Assembly (NCBI GenBank): GCA_964460805.1
Contig: CAYWPU010000002.1
Location: forward strand, 18,663-82,662
Source: an uncultured Candidatus Saccharibacteria bacterium
GTDB taxonomy: Bacteria; Patescibacteriota; Minisyncoccia; Phycocordibacterales; JACOZG01
Length of the DNA: 64,000 bases
Reading direction: 5' to 3'
Part shown: in pieces, positions 38,643 through 47,186 of the stretch
Position numbering within the stretch: position 1 is the first letter of the stretch
How the letters are laid out: every line of letters starts with the position of its first letter
Translations under genes and position numbers: made by a program
Notes under the pieces: model-generated
Told to the model about the DNA's origin: nothing
Seen by the model: the letters and a program-made list of their open reading frames with translations, nothing else
Database searches by the model: none

Positions 38643-38686
38643 CAAAAACAGGTAAGTCCGTAAACCGCGGCTTACCTGTTTTTTTA
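38643..38686. terminator. Bidirectional intrinsic terminator
   Basis: aaaaacaggtaag-14nt-cttacctgttttttt, flanked by A- and T-runs, between convergent genes. Confidence 0.7.
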
Positions 38687-39946
38687 ATTCACAAATTTAA
38701 ATGTCTTGGCGACCTCCTCCAGCAGATATCTGTCCTGCTCGGCGTAGTTTGAGGACAGGTAACTCTTGAGTATCACAAACCGACCCCCGCTGCTGCGGAA
38801 CACGAACCTGAGCCAGCGGTTTTGCTCATCTTCACTACTAGTGCTGAGAGTTCTCACTCCCGCCTGATCTACTTCCCAGCGGCCGGAGCTATAACTCTGT
38901 TTTGAAACTTCAGCATTATTTATAGTTTTTCTTTCTTCTGCGTGAACAACAGTGTAGAGGTGCACACCCTGGTACTCTCCAGAATAGTCATCCAAGGTGG
39001 CGGCAGCTGGATTCGCACTTGATTCATATTTCTCCAGTGGCAAGTGGATCCAGACGGAAGAATGACCGGTATTCTGATCGGCGTTAGTTAAAACAATACT
39101 ATCCCCTTGTGGTACGCCCTCTCGCTGTACTCGCGCGACCCGGTAGCCTTGGGGGTATTTAATCTCAAAACCGTATTGATCATTGCGATAGGTAATCCAA
39201 GAATTTTTGTCAGAAAACACGTCCTCTTGAACCTCTTTTTTTCCATACACCTGATAGTCCGCCTCTAGTCGTGCGAGTTCTTGTGGCGATATAATAGTTT
39301 CTTCGCCTGTTTCAGGATTCCAAATTGTATTTCTGTCTTCGCAATAGTCACAACCGGCCGAACTAGAGAGCAGTAAAATAGAGTGTCCCTCTTTGGACCA
39401 CCTCTGTTCTCGTGTTGTCCGATTGACTGAGCTGACAAGACCATTTTGCACATCAACAACCCCCAGTCCCGAGCCTTCTTTGTAAGCTGTTAAGAAAGAA
39501 ATATAATTTCCATCGCTAGACCACCGGGGCCTAGCGATCAATACTACTCCTGTTAAATTGGGAGCCCAACGATTGGTTTCTCCAATGCGATTGACAACAC
39601 TACTAATCTGTTGGCTCTCCAGGTCCATGACTTTTAGACCATTTTTGTCTATATAGGCAATTTTTCTTCGATCCGGGGAAAAATCTACTCCAGCCGGCAG
39701 TCCAGACCAATAATTGCCGCTATTGTTTGCCGGTACGCTTTCCTCAAATTCCAAGACTTTCTCTTTTTGCCCGGCAGCCGTTGCCTTGTACACGGTCGTC
39801 AGCGACCCACGCTTGGTGGCAGAGAAAACGGATTCTGCGTGATTATTATTGTTTGATCCCGTTCTCTTGATGTTAGAGAAAACGATTCCAACCAACCCAA
39901 TTAATACAATCAGCGCAAACGCTCCTAGAATATTTTTATTCTTCAT
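38684..39946 (-). CDS. Hypothetical secreted protein with a TolB-like/WD40-like beta-propeller region
   Basis: Signal peptide/TM. Repeated ...DG..IAY/...SPDG...-type strands (PD40-like) followed by a C-terminal beta-rich domain. Confidence 0.55.
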   Translation of the reverse strand: MKNKNILGAFALIVLIGLVGIVFSNIKRTGSNNNNHAESVFSATKRGSLTTVYKATAAGQKEKVLEFEESVPANNSGNYWSGLPAGVDFSPDRRKIAYIDKNGLKVMDLESQQISSVVNRIGETNRWAPNLTGVVLIARPRWSSDGNYISFLTAYKEGSGLGVVDVQNGLVSSVNRTTREQRWSKEGHSILLLSSSAGCDYCEDRNTIWNPETGEETIISPQELARLEADYQVYGKKEVQEDVFSDKNSWITYRNDQYGFEIKYPQGYRVARVQREGVPQGDSIVLTNADQNTGHSSVWIHLPLEKYESSANPAAATLDDYSGEYQGVHLYTVVHAEERKTINNAEVSKQSYSSGRWEVDQAGVRTLSTSSEDEQNRWLRFVFRSSGGRFVILKSYLSSNYAEQDRYLLEEVAKTFKFVN

Positions 39947-39964
39947 AATTTAAATTATACCTTT

Positions 39965-41617
39965 CTAAATTTCCACCACAAACGTGCTGCCTTGTCCTGG
40001 ACCGGCCGATTCGGCCCAGATCTTGCCCTTGTGCGCTTCCACAATCTGCTTGGCTACATAGAGACCAAGACCGGTGCCGACAATATTGACCTTGCCGGCA
40101 TCAGGCGCGCGAGTGAACTTCTCAAAGAGGTGGCTGGCAGCATCGGGTGTGAGACCGACGCCCGTATCTTGCACAGCCAGGCGCACTTTGCCGGTATTTG
40201 TTCTCATCAGACTCACTTTGATTTCCCCCTGCTTGGTGTACTTGATAGCGTTATCAATCAGATTAGTCACCACCTGGCTGATCTTGCCGGAATCAGCGGT
40301 GACCTTGTAATCCAAGCCTTCCTCAGCTTGGAACGAGAGCTTGAGGCCGCGCGCTTCCACCTGGTGGGACTGTTCGCGGATCACCATCTCCGTCATCTGC
40401 CGCAGGTCCATCTCGGCCATCTCGTACTTCATCTTACCCAGCTCAATGCGCGTGATATTCAAGAAGTCCTCAATCACTGTTACCAGCTTCTGGCTAGATT
40501 GGAAAACCACATCCACCGCCCCGCGCACCTTCTCCCCCACTTCGCCAAACGAGCCCTCCAGGATCATGGACGAGTAGCCCTTGATCGCCGTCAGCGGTGC
40601 GCGCAGTTGGTGCGAGGCAATGGAGAGGAATTCGGTTTTCTGTTTGTCTAGTTCACGGAGCTTGTCGTTGGCAACTTGGAGTTGTTCGCGTAATGCCACT
40701 TCTTTTTTGACGCTACGAACTAGCAGCATTCCTCCAATAACCGTAATGACGAGCGTGATTCCATTTAGCAAACGATTAGCTGGCGTTTTAATAAAGAAGA
40801 ATTGGGAACCAACTAGCACAGATATTACGACGGCCAGCGCTTGCGTGGCAATGAGCTTGATATCAAACTCATTGTATTTCACAATTAAATAAGAAAGAAA
40901 GGCAACAAATACTGGCATACCGAATAATCCCCACTGTGGCAACCTCCAGTCATCTGTTAGGCTACCTATAATATTTCCTGAAGAAAAAGTGAGCAGAAAG
41001 AGAATTATTCCTACTCCAATCAACAGAATTTTTTTTCTTTGAGTCTTTCCGGGGGCTTTTTGATAACTCCTGACTGAGAAAAGAGCTATCCATAACATAT
41101 AAAATATCTCTACCAAATAAGCGTAGTGTGTTAATGGACCCTCTATCGCCTCTCTATTACAATTTGTTAGATCGTATCCCAAAAGAGTGAATTTAGTGGG
41201 AATCAACAAGACGAAAGGTAATAATGGGAGAAAGACCCCAATCTTGCTGGGCAAAGAGGTGTCTCTGTTATGGATAAAAACCTGGACAAAATAGAGACCA
41301 GAAGCATATATAAACGGTTCGATAAGATTTACGATGGACCAAAAGAAAATCGTATAATCCGGTCGATCTGTAGCCCAAAGAATGAGGTCAAAAAACGCCC
41401 AAAGAGAGAAGAGAAGAGTGATGGTAAATAAAATCCTAGTGTGTAAAAGTTTTGGATTTTTGTAGAGTACAAAAAAACCAACGGTCAAAGAGACCACAAT
41501 CGGCACTATATGTGAATAGTATATGAGTGGGTCAAAAACATTCTCAGAGACAATTAAAAAATTTGTTGTATCCCACTCACAAGCAGAAATCAAGGTTTCT
41601 ATAGCATTATTGAACAT
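39965..41617 (-). CDS. Sensor histidine kinase with a large multi-TM N-terminal sensor domain (orphan; no response regulator nearby)
   Basis: About 8 TM helices, coiled coil, H-box SIASHQLRAPLTAIKGY, and N, G1 (DTGVGL) and G2 (GTGLGL) boxes of HATPase_c. Confidence 0.85.
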   Translation of the reverse strand: MFNNAIETLISACEWDTTNFLIVSENVFDPLIYYSHIVPIVVSLTVGFFVLYKNPKLLHTRILFTITLLFSLWAFFDLILWATDRPDYTIFFWSIVNLIEPFIYASGLYFVQVFIHNRDTSLPSKIGVFLPLLPFVLLIPTKFTLLGYDLTNCNREAIEGPLTHYAYLVEIFYMLWIALFSVRSYQKAPGKTQRKKILLIGVGIILFLLTFSSGNIIGSLTDDWRLPQWGLFGMPVFVAFLSYLIVKYNEFDIKLIATQALAVVISVLVGSQFFFIKTPANRLLNGITLVITVIGGMLLVRSVKKEVALREQLQVANDKLRELDKQKTEFLSIASHQLRAPLTAIKGYSSMILEGSFGEVGEKVRGAVDVVFQSSQKLVTVIEDFLNITRIELGKMKYEMAEMDLRQMTEMVIREQSHQVEARGLKLSFQAEEGLDYKVTADSGKISQVVTNLIDNAIKYTKQGEIKVSLMRTNTGKVRLAVQDTGVGLTPDAASHLFEKFTRAPDAGKVNIVGTGLGLYVAKQIVEAHKGKIWAESAGPGQGSTFVVEI

Positions 41618-41795
41618 AAGAACGAATTAAGGTATTGATCTCAGAAAACAAATCTGTGTAATCGGGTATCTGATCCTCGGAAACAAAGATATCGAACCTT
41701 TTAAGTATCATGGTATCATGGAATGTCACCAAAACTGCTGCACATATCAAAATCAACAGTCCCGCGAAGAATATTTGTGATTGACGATTAATCAT
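41607..41795 (-). CDS. Hypothetical small membrane protein (62 aa)
   Basis: One TM helix; its start overlaps the SET gene stop (ATGA) and its end overlaps the HK start, suggesting translational coupling. Confidence 0.4.
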   Translation of the reverse strand: MINRQSQIFFAGLLILICAAVLVTFHDTMILKRFDIFVSEDQIPDYTDLFSEINTLIRSYVQ

Positions 41796-46340: not shown

Positions 46341-46483
46341 CTCTAGACTCCTTCTATTGTAAAAGACCCATCTTGGAATAGCCTCACTTGAGACTAAATA
46401 CCCCCTGTCTCTATGTTAGCATAACCAATATATTTTGTCAAGTATGTTCTTGGATTCAGATACAACAAAATAATGAACAGGAT

Positions 46484-46636
46484 TCACCGCTTCCTCTGGA
46501 TCAGAGCGTAGGCAAAGCTCCAGGACCAGTAACCTGCCCGGCCAATACACCACAGCACCACCATGGTTTGCTCAGGGAACCAAGTAATCAAGCGGACTAG
46601 TGTGAGACCAATAATGGTTAACCAAAACAAAGTCAT
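46484..46636 (-). CDS. Possible small hydrophobic protein (50 aa; below the ORF-track size cutoff)
   Basis: ATG..TGA ORF MTLFWLTIIGLTLVRLITWFPEQTMVVLWCIGRAGYWSWSFAYALIQRKR with one TM helix plus a Trp-rich amphipathic segment. No SD found. Confidence 0.3.
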   Translation of the reverse strand: MTLFWLTIIGLTLVRLITWFPEQTMVVLWCIGRAGYWSWSFAYALIQRKR

Positions 46637-46647
46637 CGCAAGAGAAG

Positions 46648-47148
46648 TTATGCAAGGGATTTTAAAAATTCTCTTTTCCTTTCTTCCGGACTGAAAGATA
46701 AAGAATAATCCCAGGCTTCACTGTAGATATTGTTGCCAAATTTTTTATCTAGTTCTTTGTCCCAAGCTACAGTTTCTTGAGCGAATTCATCGCCATACAG
46801 ATCAACTAGTACATCGTAAAGCGCTAGAAATAAAACTTTATGTCTAAGCAAACTGCTCTGTGCTCCCATCTTTATCAATTTATACAGTAGACGATGACCA
46901 AGCTCATGAACCAAGACCGCCTTCTTGCGTCCTAAGTCTAAAGTATGACGAAGGGTTAAGGGGTGCGAGTAGCCCCGACAATGGAACACTGTGGCGTTGA
47001 TAAAATTCTCACGAAAATTCAGCCCCGTTATCTTGGTCCAAGCAGTAGTGATCCGTTCACCCTCTTCTTTCCAGATTTTCTCGTACTCTGCTACTCCTGT
47101 GTGGAAGTCTTCAAGGTCAGAATCTGGGTGAAAATTTATCTTTAGCAT
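46648..47148 (-). CDS. Putative zinc metallopeptidase (HExxH motif; ImmA/IrrE- or SprT/WLM-like)
   Basis: VLVHELGHRLLY contains HExxH in a hydrophobic helix context; 166 aa. Confidence 0.55.
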   Translation of the reverse strand: MLKINFHPDSDLEDFHTGVAEYEKIWKEEGERITTAWTKITGLNFRENFINATVFHCRGYSHPLTLRHTLDLGRKKAVLVHELGHRLLYKLIKMGAQSSLLRHKVLFLALYDVLVDLYGDEFAQETVAWDKELDKKFGNNIYSEAWDYSLSFSPEERKREFLKSLA

Positions 47149-47186
47149 CTTGTGTTTGCAAGAGTTTGCAAGAAAAGAAAAAGAGT

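Follow-up and report, generated by a model that had tools for sequence, protein, structure and literature searches.

The DNA analysed here (the window) is a stretch of 64,000 nt from contig CAYWPU010000002.1 of an uncultured Candidatus Saccharibacteria bacterium. Between dnaJ and trpS it carries a block of about 8.5 kb (38684-47186), in which a membrane histidine kinase is encoded together with a set of small genes, most of them without annotation. An earlier reading, made from the sequence alone and called here the sequence-only reading, regarded this block as an AT-richer accessory insertion. We find that the feature is real yet ordinary in kind, namely a lineage-restricted variable locus and not a mobile island, and we argue that its kinase is probably chimeric. 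On one side the block is flanked by dnaJ (47187-48251), with dnaK and then grpE beyond it, and on the other side by trpS (36607-37584), followed by folD and asnS; these two flanking genes lie on the - strand. All supported genes of the block lie on the - strand as well, as had been noted before, and the open reading frames (ORFs) of the + strand are shadows, e.g., 45171-45653, which overlaps b10, a gene with homologues. The block genes are labelled b1 to b12, and L numbers (e.g., L092) denote the related loci or contigs with which they were compared. The comparison is based on a synteny survey of 80 genome loci and 80 metagenome loci, i.e., about 160 related Patescibacteria loci.

The histidine kinase gene occupies positions 39965-41617. 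Both Pfam matches in the C-terminal half of its product, HisKA (E 1.6e-13) and HATPase_c (E 6e-27), are above the cut-offs, inspection of the sequence shows the H-box SHQLRAPL as well as N, G1 and G2 boxes, and at least seven hydrophobic segments are present in the N-terminal half, which confirms the earlier description of a histidine kinase with 7-8 transmembrane (TM) segments. As judged from these features, the protein is a HisKA-class sensor kinase without an adjacent response regulator. A receiver domain is absent from the whole 64 kb (tblastn with CheY, PhoB, Spo0F and NarL), and the surroundings of the kinase in 89 loci show no recurrent response regulator family.

The two halves of this gene differ in composition and in relationships. 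The GC content at third codon positions (GC3) is 0.385 in the N-terminal half (40718-41617) and 0.684 in the C-terminal half (39965-40717), or, at a finer scale, it rises from about 0.40 over codons 1-320 to 0.72-0.88 over codons 321-440. The best split falls at codon 329, with a step of 0.33, and the Pfam HisKA domain begins at aa 326. The similarity to L092, the closest different lineage, changes in the same region: identity is about 20% in the sensor half, jumps at aa 300-325 and reaches 82-88% over aa 301-375, with 70% for the kinase core overall. Compared with L084, the sensor half is 50-60% identical and the core 38-68%. The sharpest change in both composition and similarity falls within the kinase gene itself, near nt 40,630-40,720, and the lowest-GC core of the block starts in this gene. 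As a separate observation, codons 321-440 (40298-40657, - strand), which encode DHp and the start of the catalytic domain, clearly exceed the genome mean GC3 of 0.58 with their values of 0.72-0.88; one speculative explanation is that a recombination anchor here has undergone GC-biased gene conversion.

When 89 kinases were ranked by their similarity to each half separately, the leading bit scores for the sensor half were those of L084 (312), L085 (261), L065 (244), L090 (210) and L027 (208), and for the core half those of L093 (388), L092 (374), L087 (326) and L088 (318). The ranks obtained with the two halves are uncorrelated (Spearman rho -0.25). The sensor of the window gives no match to Pfam HisKA_7TM (PF16927) at E<=0.01, while the L092 sensor matches this family at 1.8e-10; the two are distant homologues (22% identity, E 4e-8). 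The type of sensor goes together with the genes found upstream. SET and/or b5 are present upstream of all five strongly window-type sensors, compared with 3/84 of the others (Fisher p 1e-6), and none of these five has ThiF or nitroreductase. Strongly L092-type sensors are accompanied by a nitroreductase in 7/7 cases, compared with 2/82 of the others (Fisher p 5e-9).

Directly upstream of the kinase lie b3 (41607-41795, GC3 0.387), the SET gene (41792-42292, GC3 0.404) and b5 (42330-42920, GC3 0.51). The b3 gene overlaps the kinase start by 11 nt and the SET gene overlaps the b3 start by 4 nt, and because of these overlaps b5-SET-b3-kinase is probably one operon. The product of b3, a conserved 62-aa ORF directly upstream of the kinase, resembles a stable single-pass membrane protein with its TM segment at aa 8-26; in L084, L085 and L044 a homologue of about 55 aa immediately precedes the window-type kinase, and further homologues occur in L097 and L016. 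The SET domain that had been noted in the 166-aa product of the next gene was confirmed by Pfam (E 9e-13, 49 bits against a cut-off of 22.4), and the motifs YLNHSCKPN, EVTVDYS and CGCKLPDC (NHSC, VDYS, CxCxxxxC) are readable. Its aa 7-128 align to the closest solved structures, the SET/post-SET domains of KMT2, at E 4e-8, and we consider it a putative cytoplasmic protein lysine methyltransferase. The b5 gene encodes a polytopic membrane protein of 196 aa with about 5-6 TM segments. Sixteen homologues could be aligned from the related loci, many of them encoded between dnaJ and the kinase; residues Y26, P37, P132 and P141 are invariant in the family, and no His or Cys is conserved. The b5 family profile matched nothing in Pfam or the PDB, neither b5 nor any of its 16 relatives matched AgrB, and there is a weak similarity (28%) to Burkholderia hypothetical proteins. 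We infer that b5, SET, b3 and the kinase may form a membrane sensing complex that would signal to a response regulator encoded elsewhere.

A different set of genes occupies the same place in the closest relatives. In L092 (3774-9959), the genes lying between dnaJ and the kinase encode an aromatic amino-acid lyase, ThiF, a 482-aa protein, a SagB-like nitroreductase and a 314-aa protein. The lyase-ThiF-nitroreductase cassette recurs in L093, L116, L120, L161, L173 and L174; its unannotated protein measures about 480-515 aa, and the 314-aa protein is found in L092 and L108. This alternative cassette adjoins a HisKA_7TM kinase, being directly upstream of it in most of these loci, and by its gene content it looks like a small biosynthetic cluster.

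The comparison of the whole interval between relatives places these differences in a broader frame. A DnaJ scan with one genome per species returned Patescibacteria alone (best DnaJ identity 64%), with labels such as Paceibacterota, Parcubacteria, Zambryski-, Taylor- and Vogelbacteria among others. Across the roughly 160 loci the recurrent order is grpE-dnaK-dnaJ-[0.06 to >13 kb variable]-(kinase)-trpS-asnS. In the 30 loci that have both genes, the dnaJ-trpS spacing ranges from 57 nt (L019) to 13.3 kb, and the same kinase lies within the interval in 15/30. It had been proposed to check whether trpS and dnaJ are adjacent elsewhere. They are in four relatives (L019, L057, L004 and L010, 57-349 nt apart), but in most the interval is occupied, by 0.8 to >13 kb. 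L092, a Hainich groundwater lineage, has identities of 80% for TrpS, 83% for DnaK and 61% for DnaJ. Contigs of the same species all carry the block, while the next sampled relatives are distant (TrpS <=80%) and share parts of it.

These parts are distributed over different relatives. The set b5-SET-b3-kinase is contiguous in L084 and present in another order in L085; L044 has b5-SET-small ORF-kinase straight after dnaJ, and L065 has SET-kinase-trpS. The SET gene is syntenic in L044, L065, L084, L085, L118 and L126. The arrangement kinase-b1-M23(-)-trpS is found also in L092, and b8 and b9 adjoin the kinase in L093 and L173. Because different parts are syntenic in different relatives (L084/L085/L044, L092, L093/L173), a single inserted unit of 8.5 kb with edges at 38684 and 47186, as in the sequence-only reading, is not supported, and b1 and the kinase core are probably native. 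That reading had left two options, an acquired block without its mobility genes or an old lineage-specific island; the former is largely refuted, and the latter is close to the truth.

The composition of the block is indeed atypical. Its GC content is 45.4%, that of the remainder of the window 51.1%, and among all 8.5-kb stretches of the 64 kb the lowest value (0.4545, start 38601) falls on the block. The lower GC content that had been claimed was therefore confirmed, whereas the size of the contrast had been overstated (45% vs 51%, not 40-45% vs 55%). The tetranucleotide deviation has its top value, 0.379, at 41001-44000 and ranges outside the block from 0.13 to 0.24, so the k-mer signature is not uniform across the window, in favour of an atypical block. 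At the level of single genes, however, no coherent atypical composition of the kind expected of an island was found: GC3 alternates from gene to gene between 0.32 and 0.67, and b9, b11 and the kinase core are similar to the core genes of the window (mean 0.582, sd 0.076). Moreover, the interval is poorer in GC than its flanks in 22/25 relatives in which it exceeds 2 kb (mean deficit 2.2 points, maximum 6.1; 5.8 points in the window), and low GC is thus a general property of the dnaJ-trpS locus. The coding of TM segments was rejected as the cause of the dip, because other polytopic membrane proteins of the same window (FtsW, MraY and CorA) have a normal GC3 of 0.60-0.63.

We also searched for traces of mobility. 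Matches to recombinases or transposases were found for 0/12 block proteins in Pfam, PHROGs and NCBIfam, in agreement with the earlier remark that no integrase or transposase is present. For the 10 unannotated block proteins, the PHROGs scan gave nothing significant (best E 0.011), the NCBIfam scan weak sub-threshold matches at most, and the PADLOC defence scan no match. Rfam and tRNA scans revealed nothing in or beside the block, the sole tRNA of the window being at 9464-9538. The suggested search for flanking direct repeats found none at the block edges beyond chance-level matches of 14-32 nt. In tblastn with 11 concatenated block proteins, there were no phage matches, and plasmids gave weak b5/SET matches on large replicons; a mobile origin of the whole block was rejected on this basis. 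A mobile island or integrative element was likewise discarded as a classification, there being no recombinase, no tRNA or direct repeats at the edges and no coherent composition.

Same-species contigs were found in independent sequencing runs by exact-protein look-ups, and they allowed us to compare strains and to assess the assembly. L081, an independent Logan contig from another run, is collinear with the window over 26607-47585 at 99.5% identity. All 101 differing positions are clustered: 54 in 39754-39919, about 38 in 45597-46031, 6 in 46687-46704 and 3 in dnaJ. The first of these clusters spans 166 nt of the 5' part of b1, which encodes the membrane anchor and linker; two alleles of it, 33% divergent, exist in strains that are otherwise identical, and the alternative one is identical in contigs of two other samples (L081, L082); the 5' end of b10 is also variable between strains. 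Such clustering of strain differences in short mosaic tracts indicates ongoing recombination. Since L081 shows no differences over 39920-45596, which includes the kinase junction, this junction is not an assembly artefact. A diversity-generating retroelement was considered for the variable tracts and rejected: substitutions are of all types, which points to recombination mosaicism, there is no reverse transcriptase match, and no repeat of template length was found, the 24-nt partial repeat in the strain tract (D1, 71-75% identity) being too short.

On the trpS side, b1 (38684-39946, GC3 0.455) encodes a membrane-anchored extracytoplasmic protein of 420 aa with one N-terminal TM segment (aa 6-24). 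It had been called a secreted beta-propeller protein; the sole basis for the propeller consists of PD40 (E 0.004) and TolB (E 1e-5) matches below the curated cut-offs. Single-sequence PDB searches with b1 and with b8 gave nothing significant. The aa 6-231 of b1 are 40% identical to the gene product at the same position in L092. The M23 peptidase gene (37658-38629, + strand; Pfam Peptidase_M23, E 2e-17) lies outside the block as first delimited, and its product is also 40% identical to the L092 counterpart, which is likewise encoded on the opposite strand between b1 and trpS. This peptidase has 13 Cys residues and a lipoprotein-like N-terminus (…VALVSC|D).

The genes of the block had been described as orphans; every one of those listed here, except b6, has homologues in other Patescibacteria, in many cases next to the same kinase. 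The latter (42943-43212, 89 aa) has the lowest GC3 of the block (0.315) and no homologue in the 160 loci. It is a paralogue of the neighbouring b7 (BLASTP E 3e-9), so the two are tandem paralogues as proposed. An exhaustive HMMER search among 1.84 billion proteins gave 11 representatives of the b7 family, and because most of them have 71-89 aa and align from the Met encoded at 43438, the true start of b7 is probably the ATG at this position, which makes it a small protein of likely 84 aa (43184-43438, GC3 0.52). The Gly-rich ORF (43503-43637, 44 aa, GC3 0.66; MLRTTHSAGGNGGSGTGQTGGNGGG...) overlaps a spurious 5' extension of b7. Its ATG follows GAAGGGAG, a strong Shine-Dalgarno sequence, at a spacer of 5 nt, a promoter-like site is located upstream at 43737-43710, and one gene caller called this candidate gene in the same-species contig L168.

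The genes b8 (43820-44260, GC3 0.41) and b9 (44333-45031, GC3 0.58) belong together. The latter encodes a 232-aa helical-bundle protein and has its own predicted promoter (45127-45100, 11/12 match) and a strong terminator (44310-44281). Its 49 homologous clusters include none with a Pfam match, and their N-terminus is nearly invariant (consensus MGGINHQPC). The AlphaFold2 (AF2) model has a predicted local distance difference test score (pLDDT) of 94.2 and long helices; compared with the PDB and BFVD it gave generic helical bundles only, and no specific PDB or viral fold. The b8 protein (146 aa, cytoplasmic) has counterparts beside the b9 homologues of L173, L093, L174 and L172, with identities of 66%, 56%, 55% and 46%, respectively. 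It has no Pfam match itself, and with the L173 homologue showing a weak match to SnoaL_2, b8 may be NTF2/SnoaL-like. An adjacent b9-b8 pair occurs in L173 (8001-9157), L093 and L174, and also on a Pseudomonadota mobile/integrative element (L171; L172, 553-1695), where an OLD/PARIS-like ATPase-DUF4435 gene and a gene for a large serine recombinase lie next to it. On its own, a b9 homologue (51% identical) is present in a prophage-like element of 66% GC (L169, 10001-12027), which is identical to the IMG/VR contig L176, listed as viral; this element encodes a primase, a helicase, SSB, Sak4 and a serine integrase, and a radical-SAM gene and a 71-aa Cys-rich ORF follow the b9 homologue. Because the pair is present on the Pseudomonadota element and a b9 homologue on the prophage-like one, b9-b8 is the sole part of the block for which homology demonstrates a connection with mobile elements.

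Three further genes complete the block. The b10 protein (45258-45686, 142 aa, GC3 0.49) is acidic, Cys-rich and membrane-anchored or secreted, with a TM segment at aa 7-25; it has 10 Cys residues and not 12, as had been counted. A promoter-like site with a perfect TTGACA-16-TATAAT lies upstream (45723-45696), and homologues are found near the kinase in L095 (3e-31) and L114. The product of b11 (45774-46340, 188 aa, GC3 0.67) is Trp-rich and hydrophobic, with no TM segment above a strict hydropathy threshold; one homologue is encoded downstream of dnaJ in L035 (2e-31), and L163 has another in the vicinity of the kinase (2e-10). For b12 (46648-47148, 166 aa, GC3 0.40) an HExxH metallopeptidase had been suggested, and HELGH is indeed invariant in 21 family members. 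The family comprises 22 clusters, and the labelled ones are from Patescibacteria except for one metagenome-assembled genome labelled Pyrinomonadaceae; one homologue (P0004) sits in an unrelated context. Residue H103, 18 residues after H85, is nearly invariant (>=90%) and may act as a zinc ligand. There is no Pfam family for b12. The top 27 PDB matches of its AF2 model (pLDDT 93.8) are all M1-type zinc peptidases, albeit weak (E 0.1-1, query TM-score (TMq) 0.35-0.59), and the best of them (TMq 0.5-0.59) are to the catalytic domains of M1 aminopeptidases. We regard b12 as a putative small zincin-like metallopeptidase.

Several observations were made beside these genes. The 307-nt gap between b11 and b12 contains a hydrophobic ORF of 50 aa (46484-46636, - strand) that is not called in same-species contigs and may be the small hydrophobic ORF listed in the sequence-only reading. 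Outside the block, the gene with the lowest GC content is a 191-aa ORF at 9580-10155 (+ strand; 36% GC, GC3 0.31, no Pfam match), directly after tRNA-Glu (9464-9538). The housekeeping gene obg contains an internal compositional step as large as that of the kinase, and intragenic compositional mosaicism may be common in this genome.

With a probability of roughly 60%, we interpret the block as the result of cassette replacement by recombination at an old variable dnaJ-trpS locus, with the kinase being a chimera. The block would then be the local version of an old variable interval that exists in many Patescibacteria of the Paceibacteria/Parcubacteria group; the usual anchor of this interval is an orphan membrane histidine kinase beside trpS. 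The content of this interval would turn over by gene and by cassette, likely through recombination with other Patescibacteria and not driven by an integrase. The vertically inherited kinase core, b1, the M23 peptidase and trpS would be native in this genome, and the sensor half, together with the translationally coupled b3, SET and b5, would have come from another lineage of the locus, such as that seen in L044, L065 and L027. What was replaced may have been the cassette of the closest relatives (aromatic lyase-ThiF-X-nitroreductase-Y, with the 482-aa and 314-aa proteins of L092 in places X and Y) plus its HisKA_7TM sensor, and one crossover would have taken place where the conserved DHp domain begins. 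As for b6/b7, b8-b9, b10, b11 and b12, they would be separate additions with their own promoters, drawn from a gene pool that is mostly confined to Patescibacteria. The homologous sensor in L027, a genome of similar GC content, has a GC3 of 0.53, compared with 0.39 in the window, which suggests that the donor of the cassette had lower GC.

Several points weigh against this interpretation. The Fisher p-values are inflated and overstate the support, because the loci are phylogenetically related and not independent. The housekeeping gene obg (11632-12600, + strand) has a comparable internal GC3 step (0.345, codon 221), and the sensor half is AT-richer in several relatives as well (mean GC3 difference +0.07, up to +0.25 in L092 and L084); GC3 steps alone are therefore weak evidence, and they are silent on the direction of the swap. 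Sensor domains are also fast-evolving. SET and b5 are found, in addition, upstream of kinases whose sensor is of a third type (L114, L118) or intermediate (L125): in L114 (5804-10738) and L118 (3279-6948), b5, plus SET in L118, precedes a shorter kinase of about 448 aa whose N-terminal part is neither window-type nor L092-type, with genes for 281-293-aa and 94-aa proteins in between. No relic of the lyase-ThiF-nitroreductase cassette was found in the window, and no donor was found either. With best matches of only about 45-55% identity for the proteins of the cassette, the exchange would have to be old or the donor lineage unsampled. In metagenomes, a scan with the kinase returned no relatives at intermediate distance, the best match being 63% identical and partial.

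The explanation closest to the earlier one is a single foreign island of about 8.5 kb that entered between M23/trpS and dnaJ and whose integrase was lost afterwards. It would account for the lowest GC and the most deviant k-mer content of the window, for the adjacency of dnaJ and trpS in four relatives and for genes without a housekeeping assignment. Nevertheless, we consider it very unlikely and largely refuted. An island of one origin does not agree with a GC3 patchwork in which core-like genes are interspersed, with b1 and the kinase core being syntenic with, and vertically related to, L092, or with the kinase being present in the interval in half of the 30 relatives; one compositional boundary lies inside a gene and not at 38684, and att-like repeats, a tRNA and a recombinase were all not found. 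Still less credible, to a degree that we would neglect, is that faulty metagenome assembly or binning produced the chimeric kinase and the mosaic block. The source is evidently metagenome-assembled and the mosaic tracts differ between assemblies, but the independent Logan contig is collinear and free of differences at the junction, the kinase reading frame is intact and every domain is detected.

The absence of any transfer deserves more weight, although we find it doubtful. Vertically inherited, weakly expressed and fast-evolving lineage genes might simply drift to AT, with the sensor diverging faster than the core. The AT-richness of the interval in 22/25 relatives, the low GC of other Pfam-less genes of the window (629-868, 9580-10155, 33586-34104), the generally lower conservation and slightly higher AT content of sensor halves and the similar step in obg would all be expected in that case. 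Faster divergence does not explain, however, why the sensor shares 50-60% identity with L084, which is more distant in its core, and only about 20% with L092, which is 70% identical there, nor the lack of correlation between the similarity ranks of the two halves, the wholly different gene set upstream in the closest relatives or the presence of b9/b8 on mobile elements of other phyla at similar identity. A functional extension, which we judge slightly less likely still, is that the cassette and the sensor half are a matched signal-receptor pair, similar to a pherotype (cf. agr), with each cassette making or handling a ligand of its own and travelling with the sensor half that recognises this ligand, while the core stays constant. 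Sensor type and upstream cassette do co-vary, the boundary between variable and constant parts falls between sensor and kinase core as in agr, the gene set is kept in L085 despite another order, the small membrane peptide b3 is conserved and its translation is coupled to that of the kinase, and the alternative cassette (ThiF, SagB-like nitroreductase, aromatic lyase) looks biosynthetic. Yet co-variation is expected from linkage alone if crossovers prefer the conserved core, b5 has neither an AgrB match nor a conserved His or Cys, the kinase is of HisKA class with no adjacent response regulator, SET and b5 are found also beside other sensor types, and there is no evidence of any secreted signal. 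Between these possibilities we favour cassette replacement by recombination.

Under this interpretation, a low-GC run of unannotated genes in Patescibacteria should not be taken for a mobile island, as the GC deficit of the interval recurs in most relatives. The separate histories of the kinase core and of the sensor with its three upstream genes lead to the testable hypothesis that b5, SET and b3 work with the sensor. That sister lineages carry a biosynthetic-looking cassette at this site is a hint of matching between signal and receptor, in a group of organisms in which signalling has hardly been studied, and b9-b8 ties Patescibacteria chromosomes to the cargo of prophages and integrative elements in other phyla. 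No current view is overturned by these results, and the functions named are predictions from sequence. In its strongest and rather improbable form, the proposal would be that the dnaJ-trpS kinase core of Paceibacteria swaps, between lineages, modules made of a cassette and a matching 7-TM sensor half, with b5-SET-b3 as one such cassette and the aromatic lyase-ThiF-SagB-like biosynthetic set as another, and that b9-b8 is a new two-gene mobile module. If true, this would mean a pherotype-like signal/receptor polymorphism in ultra-small episymbionts, with a SET methyltransferase and a 62-aa membrane peptide in the sensing module, and a b9-b8 module common to Patescibacteria chromosomes and to prophage/integrative elements of other phyla.

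Variable chromosomal loci, such as those for O-antigen and capsule or the 'replacement' flexible islands, exchange alternative cassettes by homologous recombination without integrases. The block resembles them in its fixed dnaJ-trpS position, in the differing gene sets, in the lack of mobility genes and att repeats and in its atypical composition. In contrast to such loci, it mixes a signalling operon with small unrelated genes that do not form one pathway, one crossover would lie within the kinase gene, and the comparison is between distant lineages (45-80% protein identity) and not between strains. As to the kinase itself, HisKA_7TM (Pfam PF16927) was reportedly named in a census of archaeal two-component systems. 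Like the members of this family, among them the matching orthologues of L092 and L173, the window kinase has an N-terminal region with 7 TM segments fused directly to HisKA-HATPase_c, whereas its sensor half misses PF16927 and is only 22% identical to the L092 sensor. For b9, phage 'morons' and cargo genes of integrative elements offer a comparison. It shares with them a strong promoter and terminator of its own, as well as homologues in the cargo of prophage-like and serine-recombinase elements; unlike them, it has no phage or element backbone around it in the window, and on the chromosomes of several Patescibacteria it is simply a gene next to the kinase.

Both the shuffling of N-terminal domains and the existence of orphan kinases have been described before, and shuffling has been linked mostly to the expansion of paralogues within a genome (Alm et al. 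2006, PMC1630713). The exchange proposed here would be similar in that the sensory N-terminal region is exchanged, the core is kept and the resulting kinase is an orphan without a co-transcribed regulator. It would differ in concerning a single-copy kinase at a conserved locus, the sensor of which appears to have changed together with three upstream genes. A further parallel is the staphylococcal agr locus, whose hypervariable region spans agrB, agrD and agrC (PMC10482373). Unlike agr, the window locus encodes no AgrB/AgrD homologues or LytTR regulator and its kinase is of HisKA class; its variation is between distant lineages and not within a species. As in agr, the variable segment takes in upstream genes plus the membrane-embedded sensor part of the kinase and stops short of the conserved kinase core, and the upstream genes co-vary with the type of sensor.

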